From: a virus
Taxonomy: Duplodnaviria > Heunggongvirae > Uroviricota > Caudoviricetes
DNA: 35,939 nucleotides
Strand: one strand, 5' to 3'
Virus record (IMG/VR): IMGVR_UViG_2627853983_000005
The position numbers and the translations under genes were made by a program. Position 1 is the first letter of the stretch, and every line of letters begins with the position of its first letter. This document shows positions 8,396 through 21,009 of the stretch, in pieces. The notes beneath the pieces are model-generated. The model ran no database searches, had not been told where the DNA came from, and worked only from the letters and a program-made list of their open reading frames with translations.

Positions 8396-8590
8396 ATGGA
8401 CGTTATATGGACACTTAAAAATAAAATCCATTTATTTTCAAATGATTAAACCTCTACTTAAAGCGCCCGCAGGCGCTTTAACGTTTCTTGCCCCTCCTGA
8501 TGATTTACTTATTTTTCAACGAATAAGCCAAAACAGGGGGAACAAATTAACACAAATTATAACTAATCGATGGACAGTTTATGGACACTT
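8396..8590. other. Putative attP region with Int arm-type direct repeats
   Basis: ATGGACGTTATATGGACACTT (8396-8416) and ATGGACAGTTTATGGACACTT (8570-8590) flank an AT-rich stretch and a GCGCC hairpin (8460-8479); lies at int 3' end where P2 attP sits. Confidence 0.4.
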
Positions 8591-9570
8591 TCAGCCAGCG
8601 GATTAAAGTTGATCGCGTCCAGTAAAAAGTCCGGCGAAAAATGAGCGTACGTCATTGTTTGCTGAATCGTTGCGTGCCCCAGGATTCGTTGCAACGTAAC
8701 AATATTTCCGCCATTCATCATAAAGTGTGTGGCAAATGTATGACGCATGACATGCGTAGCCTGCCCCTTCGGCAAATCCGGTTTCACCTCCTGAAGAATC
8801 TCCCGGAACTTCAGATAATCAACCTGATACAATAACCCCGTTCGACGGGTTTTAATCAGAGGCACGACCGAATCCGCCACAGGAACCGAACGGGATTTTC
8901 CGTTTTTGGTGTTAAAGAACGTCACCCGGTTGCCAACGATATGCTCTCCACGTAGTTCCGATGCTTCACTCCATCGGGCACCAGTAGAAAGACACAGAAT
9001 GGCAACACGACGCACATCACCCTCCAGTCGCTCAAGAAGCCGTTCAATCTCATCATCAGAAAGAAAGGCCATCTCTGTGTTCTGAACTTTCAGTTTTCGT
9101 ATACCGCGTACAGGGTTCGCGTTGTGAAAGACCTCAGCTTCAATCAGCACCGTGAACATGGTAGACAGTACGCATAAGTCACGATTAATACTGGACGGCA
9201 TTAATCCGGCCTGTAATTTCTCTGACCGATATTCAAGCATAAATTTTCGCGTCATCTGACTGGCGCGAGGATCTCCCATTTCACGAACAACCTTCCCTAG
9301 CCTAACCCTGTAGCTATCCCCGTAAGCCTGATTACGCCCATCAAGCATCCACCACGCATCAAGCAGCTCTGATAATCGCCGCTGATCAGCTGGCTTAGCC
9401 TGCCATGGCTTGTCATGAAAGTTCTGTAACACATACTTCTCAAACTCCTGAGCCTTTGATTTCAGGGCAAAGATTTTTCGAATCCGCTTTCCTTCCGCCC
9501 CCTGCGGTCTGACATCGACCTGATAACGTCCGTCTTTGAGTTGCTTAATCGACATGATTAGCCCCTCCAA
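8563..9570 (-). CDS. int: Tyrosine integrase, P2-type
   Basis: 335 aa with C-terminal catalytic region (...ATHVMRHTFATHF...LGHATIQQTMTYAH); adjacent to C repressor as in P2. Confidence 0.9.
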   Translation of the reverse strand: MEGLIMSIKQLKDGRYQVDVRPQGAEGKRIRKIFALKSKAQEFEKYVLQNFHDKPWQAKPADQRRLSELLDAWWMLDGRNQAYGDSYRVRLGKVVREMGDPRASQMTRKFMLEYRSEKLQAGLMPSSINRDLCVLSTMFTVLIEAEVFHNANPVRGIRKLKVQNTEMAFLSDDEIERLLERLEGDVRRVAILCLSTGARWSEASELRGEHIVGNRVTFFNTKNGKSRSVPVADSVVPLIKTRRTGLLYQVDYLKFREILQEVKPDLPKGQATHVMRHTFATHFMMNGGNIVTLQRILGHATIQQTMTYAHFSPDFLLDAINFNPLAESVHKLSID

Positions 9571-9624: not shown

Positions 9625-9966
9625 TCAGCCAACATTGCGGCCTGATCGGGGTGATTTTTGGGTAATACCGATTGAAACCTGATCGCCCTCCGACTGAATA
9701 GATCCATCAAGAGAGAGAGCCGGAGCAATCTGCCCGGCGACAGGTAGCGTCTTATCTTTTATTAGCCACAGCATGTATTTTTCAAAGCGATCGACTTGCA
9801 GAACCGCCTCAACGATTTTTGCTCTAGCGTTCTTTTGCCCCGATTCGTAATTCCTTATGGTTGCCAAAGACAACCCAGTAATATCCGCAAACTGCTTTTG
9901 TGTTAACCCTTCCGCCTTACGTATCTGACGTAACTTTTTTGCGTAGTCTATTGACAAGATAACCAT
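9625..9966 (-). CDS. C: Immunity repressor C (HTH)
   Basis: HTH ...LTQKQFADITGLSLATIRNYESGQ and QIAPAL motif resembling recalled P2 C; start taken at ATG 9966 (ORF track uses TTG at 10020). Confidence 0.8.
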   Translation of the reverse strand: MVILSIDYAKKLRQIRKAEGLTQKQFADITGLSLATIRNYESGQKNARAKIVEAVLQVDRFEKYMLWLIKDKTLPVAGQIAPALSLDGSIQSEGDQVSIGITQKSPRSGRNVG

Positions 9967-9987
9967 TTGAGTATTAACCTCTCGCAC

Positions 9988-10011
9988 AAAGATAACCTTT
10001 TGGTTATCTTT
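9988..10011. promoter_or_regulatory. Operator-like palindrome in C/cox promoter region
   Basis: AAAGATAACC-TTTT-GGTTATCTTT perfect 10-bp inverted repeat 22 bp upstream of C start. Confidence 0.5.
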
Positions 10012-10070
10012 ACAAGCCAAAACAAACCATCACAAGGCGCGACAAGCGCACCAACGCAAGAGGATAACAA

Positions 10071-10592
10071 ATGCGGGACTTCATTGCCGATAAAGAGTTA
10101 TCTGACCACCAACCACTTCAGGAAAGTGACGCACTCAGCGGATCCATTGATGCCGCCAACGACGACGAGCACGAAGAAAACAAGAAAAAGCGTTCCTACA
10201 AAAAAGGAGCGACTTTGCGGCTGGATGGTCCGATCGCCGGGCTTTGCTCTCTGGAAAAAGGCGCGGCATATATTGGGCTAACAAAATCTGCACTGCGCGT
10301 AGCCATTCATCGCGGTCAAATGCCGGGACACAAGACGCGCACAAACCCGGAAGATGAAAACTCAGACGGAGTATGGTGGTTTAACGCCAAAGAGTGGGAC
10401 AAGTTGGCTGATGAGCTACCAGAGCACGAGCCCCCAGAATGGCACAACTGGAAAAGTTACTGGACGTATGACCGCCAGAAAAGGAAGTTCTCTCCAGCTA
10501 ATAAAGAAGACTGCCAGACCATTAACGGTAAGCGAGTTTATACAGGCAGAAGCTCAAAACTGGACCAACTCAGAAACAACAGAGGCAACTAA
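10071..10592 (+). CDS. Cox/Apl-like early regulator, putative excisionase
   Basis: First gene of rightward early operon, facing C; central HTH-like segment AAYIGLTKSALRVAIHRGQMPG; acidic N-terminus. Alternative TTG start at 10215 with AAGGAG RBS. Confidence 0.5.
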   Translation: MRDFIADKELSDHQPLQESDALSGSIDAANDDEHEENKKKRSYKKGATLRLDGPIAGLCSLEKGAAYIGLTKSALRVAIHRGQMPGHKTRTNPEDENSDGVWWFNAKEWDKLADELPEHEPPEWHNWKSYWTYDRQKRKFSPANKEDCQTINGKRVYTGRSSKLDQLRNNRGN

Positions 10593-10596
10593 TCGT

Positions 10597-11019
10597 ATGA
10601 AAACAAACACGTCAGATTTCACAATAACTATTTCAAAAAATGACCAAGCATTAATTGATAACCTGAAATACCTTGCGGAAAAACATAATAACGGACGAAT
10701 TGCAATTAATTTACGACACATCACAGGAGTAACAATTGTAACCAGTTACTGGCATCTATATCTAATCGCTAAATCAGTACTTGAAAACAAAGATTCTGTT
10801 GTCAATGGAAGAGATATAGATACTCTTCCTGCACAAATCAAACCGATAGCCTATCAATTGCGTAATCGTTTTAAAAATGAAGGTGGGATTATATTTGACT
10901 TTCCCGCAGCTGTAGCCGTGAGCTTCTCTCGGGGGGATATACTTCACTCATTTCGTTTTGCTCTATCAGGTGACGAGACATTATGGCAGCTAGAAGATGC
11001 CGGGAGCAGCCCGGCATAA
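10597..11019 (+). CDS. Hypothetical protein in AT-rich island
   Basis: ATG 10597 with AGAGG RBS; 141 aa; sharp drop in GC relative to flanks. Confidence 0.55.
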   Translation: MKTNTSDFTITISKNDQALIDNLKYLAEKHNNGRIAINLRHITGVTIVTSYWHLYLIAKSVLENKDSVVNGRDIDTLPAQIKPIAYQLRNRFKNEGGIIFDFPAAVAVSFSRGDILHSFRFALSGDETLWQLEDAGSSPA

Positions 11020-11025
11020 ATCAAA

Positions 11026-11217
11026 TTAAAAATCAACCAGTTGTGTGACAGGTGGGTATTTACGCTGAATTTTGTCAGTTACTAACGCCAGTAATATATG
11101 AATCTCTGTGTTTAATGCGTCTTTATCACCCGTCGTTTTTACCCTGGGAGGGTTAATGTTATCCAGAGCAGCACTAAGTTCACTCAACAAATTAACAACT
11201 TTTTTATCTTCTGACAT
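11026..11217 (-). CDS. Hypothetical small protein (63 aa), antisense to early operon
   Basis: AAGAGG RBS 6 nt upstream of ATG; convergent with previous gene; AT-rich. Confidence 0.5.
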   Translation of the reverse strand: MSEDKKVVNLLSELSAALDNINPPRVKTTGDKDALNTEIHILLALVTDKIQRKYPPVTQLVDF

Positions 11218-11354
11218 GAAAACCTCTTAACAATTTAATTAAACATAAGCCAGGACCTGAACCGGCCAGTCCAAGTCCTAGACACACAAAAAAAATACCA
11301 CAAATCAATACAAGGTGACACGAGTACACCTTACCGAAGGTACAGAGTTTTAAT

Positions 11355-11705
11355 ATGAAACTACAGCGCAATTCTTCACAGCAGCGCTTCCGCAACGGTG
11401 CGGAACGCCATGCTAACCGTTTCGCTACCAGTGCATCACGTAGCAACTCTCGCTACAGCCTGAGCGAAACACACGCAACGCCGGATGGCTACCCAGTAAA
11501 ACAAATTGGTGAACACACTTGGCTGATTGAAAAAGCAGGAATCGTGGTTCACAGATGCCAGCGCAACCCATTTACCGGAAACCGCATTTTTGCACTGAGC
11601 AACGGCGACAATCAGTTCGGGCAGGATTTCACATTATACGAAGCACTTCGCACGGTTGATCGTCTGCTTCACGGGCAAAGTTTTATTAAACAGGCTGATT
11701 TATAA
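11355..11705 (+). CDS. Hypothetical early protein
   Basis: 116-aa ORF in early operon. Confidence 0.6.
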   Translation: MKLQRNSSQQRFRNGAERHANRFATSASRSNSRYSLSETHATPDGYPVKQIGEHTWLIEKAGIVVHRCQRNPFTGNRIFALSNGDNQFGQDFTLYEALRTVDRLLHGQSFIKQADL

Positions 11706-12005: not shown

Positions 12006-12248
12006 ATGGGCAAAGAATATAAAACTCTCATTAACAAAGCACTTGAGCGTTTTTATTTTCGCTTAAGTGCATCAGGCGCTCATGCTGAACGTGCAGCCCG
12101 TGACTCATTGACCAGGGCAATCCGGAGTCTGTATGACGTGGCTTTTTACGCTGATGATCTGGATGCACTTAACGAACTTTCCGAGCTGATCTGTGCCGCA
12201 GAATGCGGGGAACATATTGAACCGTATAAGCTGGGGAATATCGCATGA
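12006..12248 (+). CDS. Hypothetical early protein
   Basis: ATG 12006 with AAGGG RBS; stop overlaps next start (ATGA). Confidence 0.55.
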   Translation: MGKEYKTLINKALERFYFRLSASGAHAERAARDSLTRAIRSLYDVAFYADDLDALNELSELICAAECGEHIEPYKLGNIA

Positions 12249-12358
12249 GTATATTTATGTCATGGATTGTTCTGATTATTTCAGTGGTCTGCGCAATTGG
12301 CATTGTGCGAATTATTCATTCAGTAAAAAAGATTGAACGTTTTTTCACTGGTGAATAA
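12245..12358 (+). CDS. Possible small single-TM peptide (37 aa)
   Basis: MSIFMSWIVLIISVVCAIGIVRIIHSVKKIERFFTGE; start overlaps previous stop (ATGA coupling). Confidence 0.3.
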   Translation: MSIFMSWIVLIISVVCAIGIVRIIHSVKKIERFFTGE

Positions 12359-12451
12359 CGATACAAATAAAACATCAAATTAAATAAGAAAACGTGAAAA
12401 CCATCCGTATTAACGGAGGTATTCGCACACGCAAATAACGGAGATACAAAA

Positions 12452-12862
12452 ATGCACGCAAAAGAAGAAGGTATCATCAGAGCACTGAAAGAAATTTCAA
12501 AGACAGAAAACGAAGTAGCGAAAAAAGCCATAGCAAATAATCATATGGACGTCGCAACCCACACACTGATAGTCGCAAGAGTCACGGCAGAAGCAGCCGA
12601 AATTATCGCAAAACAGGATGCTGAACTGGCGGTTCTCAGAACACAACCAGTCACCGGACTGGATTTGTCTAACACCGGACGCCTTATTTACACAATTGGC
12701 TCGGAGCTACAGCGATACACCATTATCGCCGGGTTACAGGATAAATACCTGATCACTCCTCACCCCATAAGGGAATCAGAAATTCTGACAAATCTCCGCC
12801 TGATAGAGCGCTCTCAAGTCGCATTCATTGATGACGCACAGTGCACCGTATTTAACGCATAG
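12452..12862 (+). CDS. Hypothetical early protein
   Basis: 136-aa ORF with AGGT/GGAG-type RBS upstream. Confidence 0.6.
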   Translation: MHAKEEGIIRALKEISKTENEVAKKAIANNHMDVATHTLIVARVTAEAAEIIAKQDAELAVLRTQPVTGLDLSNTGRLIYTIGSELQRYTIIAGLQDKYLITPHPIRESEILTNLRLIERSQVAFIDDAQCTVFNA

Positions 12863-18508: not shown

Positions 18509-18823
18509 ATGACGACACCAACCAGACGGATAAGTTTCTATCTGAAGCCCGCCGCCGTCAAGAGTGAACAGGAGGCGTGCAATTACCTCGATAGCCTGCC
18601 AGCCTCCGAACGCAGCCGCGCGCAACGCGCGGCCTTTCTGGCTGGGCTAGCGCTCATAAAGCGCAACCCAGCATTTGCCTACTGGATGGCCGAATGGCCA
18701 GAGGACAACCTCCCCTTCAATACCGTTAGCATCAAGGAAACATACCAGGATAATCAGCCTAGCGGAGTTGAATGCAATTTTTATAAAATAAAAAAGAATA
18801 TTCAGACCTTATTCCCAGAATAA
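18509..18823 (+). CDS. parR: ParR/StbB-like centromere-binding adaptor
   Basis: AAGGAG RBS; RRISFYLKP...LDSLPASERSRAQRAAFLAGLALIK resembles recalled R1 ParR ribbon-helix-helix N-terminus; directly downstream of parM. Confidence 0.8.
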   Translation: MTTPTRRISFYLKPAAVKSEQEACNYLDSLPASERSRAQRAAFLAGLALIKRNPAFAYWMAEWPEDNLPFNTVSIKETYQDNQPSGVECNFYKIKKNIQTLFPE

Positions 18824-18906
18824 TCTGATAATTGTATGTGAACTAATAAAATACAGACCAACACATCATTCTGGCACCCTTGCTAACAGGGTGCCAATGT
18901 TTCAAA

Positions 18907-19749
18907 TCATGATGAAATTGCCGAAGTTTTTTTATCGTGCTGAAGTACCGCAAATGCCATTAAAACCTCAAGAGAATAGCGGCGATAATACTTAACAAAA
19001 CCATAATAAAATACTCGGGATGCAGCAATACAAAACAAGAGAAGAAAACAAAAAGGTAACAGTCTGATATTTATATCTATTAAAAAGGATAGAAGGAGCA
19101 GGAACATAAGCAACCAGACTGAAGCGAGAAAAACAAATGTAATGTTTCTACAAAAACCATACAAAGCAACATAGTTTTGCATTTTCACCTGATGATTTTT
19201 AGAATGTTCATACACATAATGATAAGCAAGGCGAAAAAGATCGCCCCTCAAGCCCTTACGTCGATATAGCGTAGATACAGAAAAAACATTTATATAACCA
19301 TCTCGTATTTGCGGCCAAAAGACTTTAATAAGTATAGAATGCAGTGTGGTTTTATGATGTTCTGCTTTATCAAAAGCTGATACAGGAAATAAAAAAACTC
19401 CACGAATAAAATTAACTATACTGAACTTAGTATTATGTCGTTTTATTTTCAGGGAGCTTCTTTTAGAAAACAGATAAATTGAAGGATACCCAAGTTTACT
19501 GTTCATGTATTTTTCAATTAAACAGGATGATAGAATAGATATGAAGTGACCTGAAATATATGATAGAACGATTAATACCACATATATAAATACACTTATT
19601 ATTTCTTTATATTTCAGGATATGGTTAAGAATACCTTCTATATAAACAGGGTTAATTTCAATAGAAAACAAAAAAAGGATAAACAGGAATAACCCACCTG
19701 GAATTAGATAGCCCAAAAAGTCATAAAATGAAAACGGATTCTGTGTCAC
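18907..19749 (-). CDS. Hypothetical integral membrane protein (2 N-terminal and 2 C-terminal TM helices), second gene of AT-rich cassette
   Basis: 280 aa; GTG start with CAGGGGGAAG RBS; very low GC; hydrophobic segments at both ends with a soluble middle. Confidence 0.6.
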   Translation of the reverse strand: MTQNPFSFYDFLGYLIPGGLFLFILFLFSIEINPVYIEGILNHILKYKEIISVFIYVVLIVLSYISGHFISILSSCLIEKYMNSKLGYPSIYLFSKRSSLKIKRHNTKFSIVNFIRGVFLFPVSAFDKAEHHKTTLHSILIKVFWPQIRDGYINVFSVSTLYRRKGLRGDLFRLAYHYVYEHSKNHQVKMQNYVALYGFCRNITFVFLASVWLLMFLLLLSFLIDINIRLLPFCFLLLFCIAASRVFYYGFVKYYRRYSLEVLMAFAVLQHDKKTSAISS

Positions 19750-19788
19750 ACTTCCCCCTGTGTTACTTGTAAATTAAAGGGTAAAACA

Positions 19789-20286
19789 TTATTTGTTTTT
19801 CCGTAAAGGATTAGCTTTCCATCTTCTTACTAACCATTCGAATTCTTGATATGTAGTATCCGAATTAATGCTTTCTCTGATTGCTTTAATTAATGGCTCG
19901 GCAATATCATATGTCTCTACAACTGTTGTGTAAGATGTTCTTTTTATCATTTTTTCATCATAAATACCTTCACGAATACTTACAGCAACTCGCTCGTAAA
20001 AATTTAAAATATATTGAAATTTTCGACGCTCGGCCATTTCTTCATCTGTTATTATGCAACCATCACAAGGAAAAACATAAGAACGAAATGATTTGCCTGA
20101 ACGATGCACTTGTTTCAGGGTATGCAATGACTCTATATATTGCATATCTTGCCGACTCTCAAAAAGAAAGTTGGCCGTTTGAGTTTTTTTTGCGGTACGC
20201 ACATTGTAGATAATGGTTCCAATGGCAACCAAAACGCCAAGCAGAACAATAGCATTGCTGATGATTTGTAGTGTTATTGGGTTCAT
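19789..20286 (-). CDS. Hypothetical single-pass membrane protein, first gene of AT-rich cassette
   Basis: 165 aa; N-terminal TM helix MNPITLQIISNAIVLLGVLVAIGTIIY then soluble domain; weak RBS. Confidence 0.6.
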   Translation of the reverse strand: MNPITLQIISNAIVLLGVLVAIGTIIYNVRTAKKTQTANFLFESRQDMQYIESLHTLKQVHRSGKSFRSYVFPCDGCIITDEEMAERRKFQYILNFYERVAVSIREGIYDEKMIKRTSYTTVVETYDIAEPLIKAIRESINSDTTYQEFEWLVRRWKANPLRKNK

Positions 20287-20299
20287 CCTATTTCATCCA

Positions 20300-20326
20300 T
20301 AAAAAAGGCGGGGAGCAAATCCCCGC
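20300..20326 (-). terminator. Rho-independent terminator/attenuator just upstream of AT-rich cassette
   Basis: On minus strand: stem GGCGGGGA/TCCCCGCC, 5-nt loop, then T6 run; ends 14 nt before cassette start codon. Confidence 0.55.
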
Positions 20327-21009
20327 CTCATTAGAGGTCAACGTAGCTTAGAAACCATCAAATTCATCATACATTTTTTTCATATCAACCCCCTCATAGA
20401 AATCATAACCACGTTTTGTGGTTTTTGTGACGTATAAACTACATCAAAGGCAAGCCACGGTCAAATATATAGGCATGCTTACCTGCACAAAAGTGCACAA
20501 ATTTGCACAATTTTTTTGAACGACTTTTTACCCTTCCGGCCCGCATGGCGGCTGGATCCGTCAAGGATCCGTGCGTGCACAAAAAAACGCGCTTTTTCTG
20601 CGCGCAGGTGACGGGGGAACAGCCCGCGTTTCAGGGGGTAAATAGCATTCCCTGAACGATGTCGCAGAGACACAACAGAATGGCCATATTTCTCACGCTG
20701 AGCATGAAAAAGGCGTGAGGGCTTTTGATTTGATGGGGTGAAAGGTAAGGCCGTCAAAATCGCACTGAGGCAGCGAGAACATGCAGTCAACGCGGTGGAA
20801 TTGCGTAAGAGTCTGACCGTCGATGGTGGCGATAAACTGGAAGGCGTCGTGAAATTATCTGATTGATACAGGAGCTGGAGAGCCGGGGCATAAATTTTTT
20901 ATGCCCCGGCGAAGCAGCAGACAAGCGAAGCGCGTCAGCGATACGGCACCTTGCCGACCATACTTCATAAGTGCAAAATACGAGCAAAGAAATCAATGGA
21001 GGCTGTCTT

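Follow-up and report, generated by a model that had tools for sequence, protein, structure and literature searches.

The 35,939-nucleotide stretch of viral DNA analyzed here (IMG/VR record IMGVR_UViG_2627853983_000005; hereafter the window) begins with bacterial host genes on the dmsABC side and continues into a P88-like prophage of the P2 family (Peduoviridae). An AT-rich region of this prophage, lying directly after the cox gene at the start of the early operon, is very probably a cargo cassette. It carries two uncharacterized genes that face each other, one of 140 amino acids (aa) on the plus strand (ORF140) and one of 63 aa on the minus strand (ORF63; ORF, open reading frame). The reading we tentatively favor is that this is a mobile two-gene accessory cassette, or moron, occupying a hypervariable slot behind cox, and that its genes form a partner pair, one for the lysogenic and one for the lytic state.

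The borders of the cassette are sharp. In alignments with the related elements EC571, P88, Shae, Chuche and E300010, homology ends exactly at the cox stop codon (position 10592) and returns at ~11338–11348, with the right border of the insert falling ~17 bp before the start of the DUF4761 gene. The insert is thus 10593–11337, or 745 bp. Its GC content is 38.3%, against 52.3% for the prophage part and 52.5% for the whole window. The original prediction, made from the letters of the DNA alone, had described a sharp drop in GC over ~620 bp; this interval (10597–11217) is indeed 37.8% GC, and only 3.8% of 621-bp segments are as low. We found no flanking direct repeats or transposon-like ends at the cassette, and an Rfam search returned no RNA family within it. 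The left anchor of the slot, cox (10071–10592, plus strand, 173 aa; Pfam Phage_Cox, E = 1.9e-7; phrog_23196, E = 1e-116), is the first gene of the rightward early operon, and the right anchor (11355–11705, plus strand; Pfam DUF4761, E = 2e-68) is the next backbone gene of that operon; both are context and not cargo. It had also been proposed that the region is an acquired moron, and the exact borders, the absence or replacement of the region in close relatives, and a clean natural deletion in one strain support this well.

Both genes of the cassette are annotated coding sequences, ORF140 in RefSeq/GenBank. ORF140 (10597–11019, plus strand) runs from an ATG at 10597 to a TAA stop codon at 11017–11019 and encodes a soluble, near-neutral protein. 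The predicted plus-strand frame is therefore present, and its length is 140 rather than the 141 aa first given, a count that had included the stop codon. A weak Shine-Dalgarno sequence, AGAGG, can be read 11 nt before its start (10581–10585, plus strand). ORF63 (11026–11217, minus strand) starts with an ATG at 11217, ends with a stop codon at 11026–11028 and encodes a soluble, mildly acidic protein, which is probably a two-helix protein. The stop codons of the two genes are 6 bp apart (11020–11025), just as had been described, and the ribosome-binding site noted for ORF63, AAGAGG, is confirmed at 11228→11223 of the minus strand, with 5 nt between it and the ATG; two natural variants of this site (AAGGGG and TAGAGG) keep it purine-rich. 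Across homologues, ~23 positions of the ORF140 family are invariant, and the ORF63 family conserves an N-terminal M-x-E-D (M1, E3 and D4), an LL pair (L10 and L11), A17 and a K-Y-P motif close to the C-terminus. The P2 protein Orf78, whose gene follows cox in P2, was considered as a relative of ORF63 and rejected, with an hhalign probability of 1.6% and genes on opposite strands; the 62-aa minus-strand 'gp13' of P88 was likewise set aside as an unrelated GC-rich sequence.

The evidence that carries the pairing of these genes comes from diverged homologues. Word-indexed searches returned only near-identical E. coli proteins. An exhaustive HMMER search of 1.84 billion representatives revealed a single genuine but remote relative of ORF140, the 138-aa protein P0014 (34% identity, E = 2.7e-7), encoded downstream of a cox gene in a Salmonella enterica P2-like prophage. 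The P0014 gene is followed by a convergent 62-aa ORF that overlaps it by 4 bp and whose product is 40% identical to ORF63. A profile search that started from these two small proteins yielded members in E. coli and Salmonella only, and a pattern scan of IMG/VR revealed a third, more distant pair (136 and 60 aa; 28% and 25% identity) in the contig L040, in the same position after a cox-like gene and again with a 4-bp overlap of the 3' ends. Neither ORF had relatives among GTDB representative genomes, and a tblastn search of a phage database returned the same three E. coli records only. Overall, ORF140 homologues are 28–35% identical and hold the same position in the Salmonella prophages and L040, while ORF63 homologues are 25–40% identical and always convergent with an ORF140 homologue. 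In all lineages the pair follows a cox-like gene and its 3' ends are either 6 bp apart or overlap by 4 bp, the one exception being a Salmonella variant (L021) with an altered C-terminus and a 31-bp overlap. The Salmonella prophages that carry the pair differ in immunity module and integration site, with at least three kinds of each, and the pair is convergent in every one of them. Among Salmonella alleles the ratio of nonsynonymous to synonymous substitution rates (dN/dS) is 0.27–0.63 for the ORF140 family and 0.35–0.52 for the ORF63 family. Taken together, these comparisons show two genuine genes that E. coli, Salmonella and a third lineage have inherited together as a convergent unit, since chance ORFs would not hold length, frame, partner and orientation at such divergence. 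We consider it likely that ORF140 and ORF63 are functionally coupled.

Within E. coli, the whole cassette is found in 270 of 5,426 complete genomes (~5%), including the sequence type 131 (ST131) lineage and UTI89. Of the 272 genomes with any match, 270 have the entire cassette and none has half of it; in carriers it is single-copy, chromosomal and at least 95% identical. In these strains cox and the cassette have 1–3 variable sites per 100 bp as against 11 per 100 bp in the adjacent DUF4761 gene, a contrast that suggests a boundary of recombination at the right edge of the cassette. With only 14 variable sites in the cassette, there was too little variation for a selection test within E. coli. 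One strain, E. coli PRO_A-1504-6M-A_ESBL (L047, positions 983–1577), has a clean deletion from window position 10590 to ~11277 that removes both genes. This naturally deleted version of the same prophage has a longer cox, of 185 aa, and retains only the final 61 bp of the cassette, which include the −10 motif and the dyad described below.

The position that the cassette takes in this prophage is filled differently in its relatives. In P88 the slot is 38 bp long and holds no gene, so that the DUF4761 gene comes directly after cox. Shae, Chuche and EC571 have a single 68-aa plus-strand ORF there, a version found in 77–95 E. coli genomes. In E300010 a 202-aa plus-strand gene faces a 155-aa minus-strand gene of the ECs1072 family, and G1/2 has a third arrangement that includes a 151-aa minus-strand cargo protein. 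EC571 and E300010 encode the very same C repressor (WP_001368591) as cassette carriers, JJ1886 among them, and the cox genes of EC571 and E300010 are ~95% identical to the window cox in nucleotide sequence; the cassette is therefore not tied to immunity type. The original prediction had called a minus-strand gene at this place atypical for P2. This is true of P2 itself, in which all genes from cox to orf91 lie on the plus strand, but not of the slot, since other cassettes that occupy it (those of E300010, G1/2 and the Salmonella locus L019) also carry minus-strand genes. These other cassettes are uncharacterized too: scans of the neighboring cargo against Pfam, PHROGs, NCBIfam and PADLOC gave sub-threshold noise only. 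We also asked whether the neighboring 259-aa Salmonella gene or the E300010 cargo might be a paralogue of ORF140; neither is.

Several further observations concern the slot. A segment of ~75 bp directly upstream of the DUF4761 gene (L006, 3925–4065; L048, 1440–1573) is common to the E300010 and G1/2 cassettes and to several other genomes. It contains TTGTGGTA(T/A)TTT and a dyad, GCCGGG..CCCGGC, and, instead of belonging to any one cassette, may be a leftward promoter/operator that resides in the slot. In Salmonella L019 (6766–7804) and in the IMG/VR contig L040 (4461–5339) the pair is followed by a second uncharacterized cargo gene on the plus strand, of 259 and 292 aa, respectively. In L019 this gene faces a 103-aa minus-strand ORF, and its start region repeats the junction TTAACGAGGTACAAAATGAAA seen before the ORF140 homologue; TTAACGAGGTACAAAATGAAA may be a cassette boundary used in recombination. 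Finally, P0020, a 40-aa protein from a Logan contig, is a hybrid with an N-terminus (MKIILSSESKKWLW) like that of the G1/2 151-aa minus-strand protein and a C-terminus identical to the Salmonella ORF63 homologue, a structure suggesting that different cargo genes on the minus strand of the slot have recombined.

Predicted expression signals set the two genes apart. Upstream of ORF63 we identified by sequence comparison a putative promoter, TTGTGGTATTTTT (11291–11303, minus strand), with an extended −10 element (TGgTATTTT, 11300→11292). This 13-mer occurs once in the window, where 0.10 occurrences would be expected even with one mismatch allowed, and the unrelated minus-strand ECs1072-family gene of E300010 has an identical 13-mer in the corresponding upstream position. 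The G1/2 sequence TTGTGGTAATTT is the counterpart of the ORF63 −10 motif, the Salmonella and L040 loci have TGcTAT(G/C)TT at the equivalent spot, and the motif is missing from slot versions that lack a minus-strand gene. Just downstream of the −10 motif, the 5' leader of the ORF63 mRNA is predicted to fold into a 14-bp hairpin (11250–11281, minus strand). The hairpin would be stable only in minus-strand RNA because its stem depends on G-U pairs; folding of the intergenic region gave −36.9 kcal/mol as minus-strand RNA versus −18.7 kcal/mol as plus-strand RNA. Hairpins are present in the same place in L019, L022, L040 and E300010, and there is a 5' hairpin in G1/2 also.

At the other end of the gene, 9 nt after the ORF63 stop codon and inside the last codons of ORF140, lies a terminator-like hairpin, AUGCCGGG-CUGCU-CCCGGCAU with the tail CUUCUAGCU (10997–11017, minus strand). 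It could terminate leftward transcripts only, because on the plus strand it is an A-rich stretch that comes after it. Hairpins unrelated in sequence are found at the same position in L019, L022 and L040, the last with the tail UUCCUUUUG, and in none of the three lineages did we find a comparable terminator-like structure behind the large gene on its own strand. These sequence signals, on balance, favor ORF63 as an autonomous leftward transcription unit. For ORF140, the scan revealed no promoter-like site upstream on the plus strand, and since the gene starts 4 nt after the cox stop codon it is probably read from the early (Pe) transcript.

The region to the right of ORF63 had been described as a divergent promoter region with a dyad, AAGGTG-N9-CACCTT. 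There is good comparative evidence for the leftward promoter and none for a separate rightward one, given that the DUF4761 gene directly follows cox in P88. The dyad is present at 11312–11332, one base from where it had been placed, and overlaps the −35 position of the putative leftward promoter. On its own it is not significant, because chance alone would produce 0.71 such 6-bp dyads per 137 bp, and it could at most be considered a candidate operator; in E300010 and G1/2 the corresponding position is taken by another dyad, GCCGGG..CCCGGC. No k-mer of at least 7 nt is common to the C/cox switch region and the cassette intergenic region, and thus we saw no sign of repressor control.

This layout leads us to propose how the pair might be expressed. 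The ORF63 unit would consist of the extended −10 promoter, the strand-specific 5' stem-loop, the Shine-Dalgarno sequence, the ORF and the leftward-only terminator and, being self-contained, could be expressed in a lysogen in which Pe is repressed. ORF140, which has no promoter of its own and begins so close to the end of cox, would be made only when Pe fires, that is, upon infection or induction. To reach the essential downstream genes the Pe transcript would have to cross the antisense ORF63. As the genes meet or overlap at their 3' ends, transcription from Pe would run antisense through ORF63, and the two products would then belong to opposite states. With low confidence, we further propose that the two proteins act on each other: ORF140 might be an early-lytic effector for host takeover, anti-defense or exclusion, and ORF63 a prophage-state antidote or regulator of ORF140. 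An effector/antidote relationship between them is a doubtful proposition.

The proposed regulatory logic is like that of pore-forming colicin operons, in which an inducible effector gene is followed by a small, oppositely oriented immunity gene with a constitutive promoter, and operon transcription reads through the latter. The likeness is one of layout only, namely that of an inducible-operon effector facing a small antisense gene with its own promoter, here a predicted one. Colicin immunity proteins are membrane-bound, whereas ORF63 is soluble, and there is no homology.

A broader form of this proposal, which we regard as unlikely, is that the cassette represents an unrecognized two-component conflict module of P2-family phages. 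ORF140 and ORF63 would be mutually exclusive through convergent overlapping transcription and would give exclusion, self-immunity or anti-defense, and the cox-proximal slot would rank as the third or fourth cargo hotspot, in which a resident leftward promoter would serve any minus-strand gene placed there.

Several points weigh against the partner-pair proposal or some part of it. Since the cassette is nearly clonal in E. coli (at least 95% identical), co-occurrence of the two genes there is weak evidence of coupling. A consensus promoter scan gave no sigma-70 site for ORF63, and the terminator hairpin after ORF63 is below the T-run threshold of the scan. The leader hairpin with its U-rich stretch could itself be a terminator of leftward transcripts before they reach ORF63. 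Literature searches by protein accession and locus tag returned no papers and no RNA sequencing or transcription start site data for either gene. Profile searches and structure prediction, which had been put forward as checks on the two proteins, gave no family match and no usable fold: AlphaFold2 models of ORF140 reached predicted local distance difference test scores (pLDDT) of 42 from the single sequence and 49 with a 3-sequence alignment and were unusable, and fold searches with the ORF140 model returned noise. For this reason the effector/antidote idea draws only on gene linkage and layout. In addition, the charges of the two proteins, each of them near-neutral to acidic, do not obviously complement each other. 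The profile searches comprised Pfam, PHROGs, NCBIfam and PADLOC scans of both proteins and their Salmonella and L040 homologues, which gave sub-threshold noise only (for example DUF1408, E = 0.022); PADLOC-DB 2.0, in which the E. coli and Salmonella versions of both proteins had no match at E ≤ 1; and sequence and profile searches of the PDB, which had no match for either protein. None of these searches thus returned a match that would speak for superinfection exclusion, anti-defense or a toxin-antitoxin-like pair, the roles suggested in the original prediction.

Four other explanations were considered. In the first, which we judge unlikely, there is no interaction: ORF140 is an early anti-defense or host-takeover protein acting alone, and ORF63 is a separate prophage-expressed moron or a mere regulator of slot transcription. 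The first genes of early operons are typical sites of anti-defense and host-takeover functions, fil and dhr of phage 186 lie in the same neighborhood, and the slot takes many unrelated cargo genes, all of which would fit independent genes. Separate morons would, however, be expected to part, and this pair stays together, in the same abutting convergent layout, in three lineages with 25–40% identity and differing backbones.

A toxin-antitoxin or abortive-infection module for prophage addiction or defense, with ORF63 as the antitoxin and ORF140 as the toxin, is less probable still. One small and one larger protein encoded as a tightly linked unit on a mobile element is what such a module would look like. 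But type II toxin and antitoxin genes are co-directional, co-transcribed and autoregulated, and here the genes are convergent in all homologous loci, so that the toxin-antitoxin-like pair raised in the original prediction does not hold up as an operon of the classical type. No toxin, antitoxin or defense model in Pfam or PADLOC was matched, and no type II toxin-antitoxin domain was found in either family with Pfam, NCBIfam or PADLOC. Moreover, ORF140 would be silent in the lysogen, which makes it ill-suited to be an addiction toxin. The natural deletion of both genes is uninformative here, because the loss of both is tolerated for such pairs.

Also improbable, and more so, is a lysis-lysogeny module like cII/pE of phage 186, in which ORF140 would activate the leftward promoter via the −35 dyad and the leftward transcript would counteract cox and favor C and int. 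In 186, cII and the leftward CII-dependent promoter pE are found directly after apl, the cox homologue, and in the prophage described here, too, a gene directly follows cox and a leftward promoter is predicted inside the rightward early operon. In addition, the putative leftward promoter lacks a −35 hexamer and the dyad is located exactly there. However, ORF140 was tested as a CII relative and rejected (hhalign probability 0.45%), and Pfam revealed no helix-turn-helix family in it. The leftward unit of the cassette, unlike that of 186, encodes a protein and ends at a predicted terminator, and as the terminator-like hairpin comes directly after ORF63 in all lineages the leftward transcript should not reach cox or C. 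The cassette is also dispensable for prophages with the same immunity genes: there are identical-repressor prophages without it or with other cargo, and P88 does without it as well. The dyad, finally, is at chance level, and no motif is held in common with the C/cox switch region.

Finally, non-coding AT-rich DNA might contain one or both reading frames by chance, as their being orphans in family databases might suggest. This is unlikely a priori because AT-rich DNA, although poor in GC-rich codons, is rich in stop codons, and it is effectively refuted by the same lengths and layout at 25–40% amino acid identity in three lineages, the conserved motifs, dN/dS values below 1 and Shine-Dalgarno sites on both genes.

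We therefore return to the two-gene accessory cassette and compare it with known cargo. Phage 'morons' were reportedly defined by Hendrix and Juhala for lambdoid phages. Like these, the cassette lies between two backbone genes, deviates in composition, runs against the lytic genes and is present in only some of a set of near-identical phages; three features tested here fit the definition, namely its scattered distribution at an exact junction, its unusual composition and its orientation opposite to the lytic genes. Morons are extra transcription units with their own promoter and terminator, and the ORF63 unit may resemble them in this too, both signals being predicted. ORF140, the second gene of the cassette, has no signals of its own and would differ from a moron in using the host operon transcript. 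The old/tin cargo of P2 is similarly AT-rich and non-essential and is read leftward from its own promoter in the lysogen; it differs in lying after gene A, outside the early operon, and in encoding larger proteins with known activities. The PADLOC and Pfam searches revealed no similarity of the cassette proteins to old/tin. A further comparison is with the other cassettes of the same slot. Those of E300010 and G1/2, and the 259/292-aa plus-strand and 103-aa minus-strand cargo of L019 and L040, have the same plus-then-minus convergent layout, and those of E300010 and G1/2 also have the leftward −10 motif and the 5' hairpin, but the proteins of these other cassettes are unrelated.

Morons in P2-like prophages have been treated previously (PMC3573123). 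Their classical positions in P2 are A–Q (old/tin) and G–FI or Z/fun, with tail-to-CI/att as a further hotspot described in P2-like prophages (PMC3573123; bioRxiv 10.1101/2024.10.15.618418). The cox-proximal slot is not among the classical positions, and a 2026 survey assigned 8% of the known or recognizable defense systems of P2-like prophages to the integrase-to-primase region (PMC13586616). The kind of element is thus familiar, and the cox-proximal slot and the two protein families are essentially undescribed.

The prophage backbone of the window is ~90% identical to phage P88 (genus Xuanwuvirus, Peduoviridae). A 3-kb part of the window is 100% identical to E. coli prophage records, including one from an O25b:H4-ST131 strain, and the same prophage adjoins dmsA in JJ1886 (ST131) and UTI89. 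To the left of cox, the minus strand carries the integrase gene (8563–9570) and the gene for a helix-turn-helix immunity repressor (9625–10020); to the right of the cassette, the early genes encode the DUF4761 protein, phrog_3800 and DUF4754. The Cox protein encoded at 10071–10592 is unusually long (173 aa versus 91 aa in P2): its N-terminus is extended by an acidic stretch of ~55 aa, it has a tail at the C-terminus, and the Pfam Cox model matches residues 58–129 only. Two matching records, ON470599.1 and ON470623.1, bear the phage names vB_EcoM-569R5 and vB_EcoM-705R2, respectively. The first begins with ~11.5 kb of host genes (ycaO, focA, pflB and dmsABC) and is marked 'partial genome', and so represents a prophage region with flank and not a packaged genome. 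The second, of near-equal length and with identical match coordinates, is probably also a prophage region, and these records are consequently no evidence of an active phage.

Two other AT-rich intervals in the window deserve mention. The deepest AT-rich island, at ~18590–20600, has 621-bp segments down to 29% GC and is located between the gpA replication gene with two 'plasmid partition' genes and the portal gene Q. In P2-like phages this location is the classical hotspot for old/tin cargo; here it contains unannotated ORFs including one of ~225 aa on the minus strand. A second small dip, to 33.5% GC, occurs in the interval 12200–12862 and is followed by a 136-aa gene of unknown function (12452–12862; phrog_9338). 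This gene is present in this prophage, UTI89 and Shae and is not found in P88 or Chuche, marking another small variable slot of the early operon.

Whatever its role, the cassette is carried by ~5% of complete E. coli genomes, among them the pandemic ST131 lineage and the model uropathogen UTI89, with both of its protein families lacking any annotation. Were the genes to have no phenotype, the cassette would merely be another orphan moron. If instead it proves to be a defense, anti-defense or effector/immunity module, it would be a new system for the repertoire of the P2 family, and the cox-proximal slot, barely covered by hotspot surveys, would be worth searching for others. The conserved layout, in which a gene of the early operon faces an antisense gene with predicted signals of its own, would also be a small natural case of convergent transcription giving reciprocal expression.

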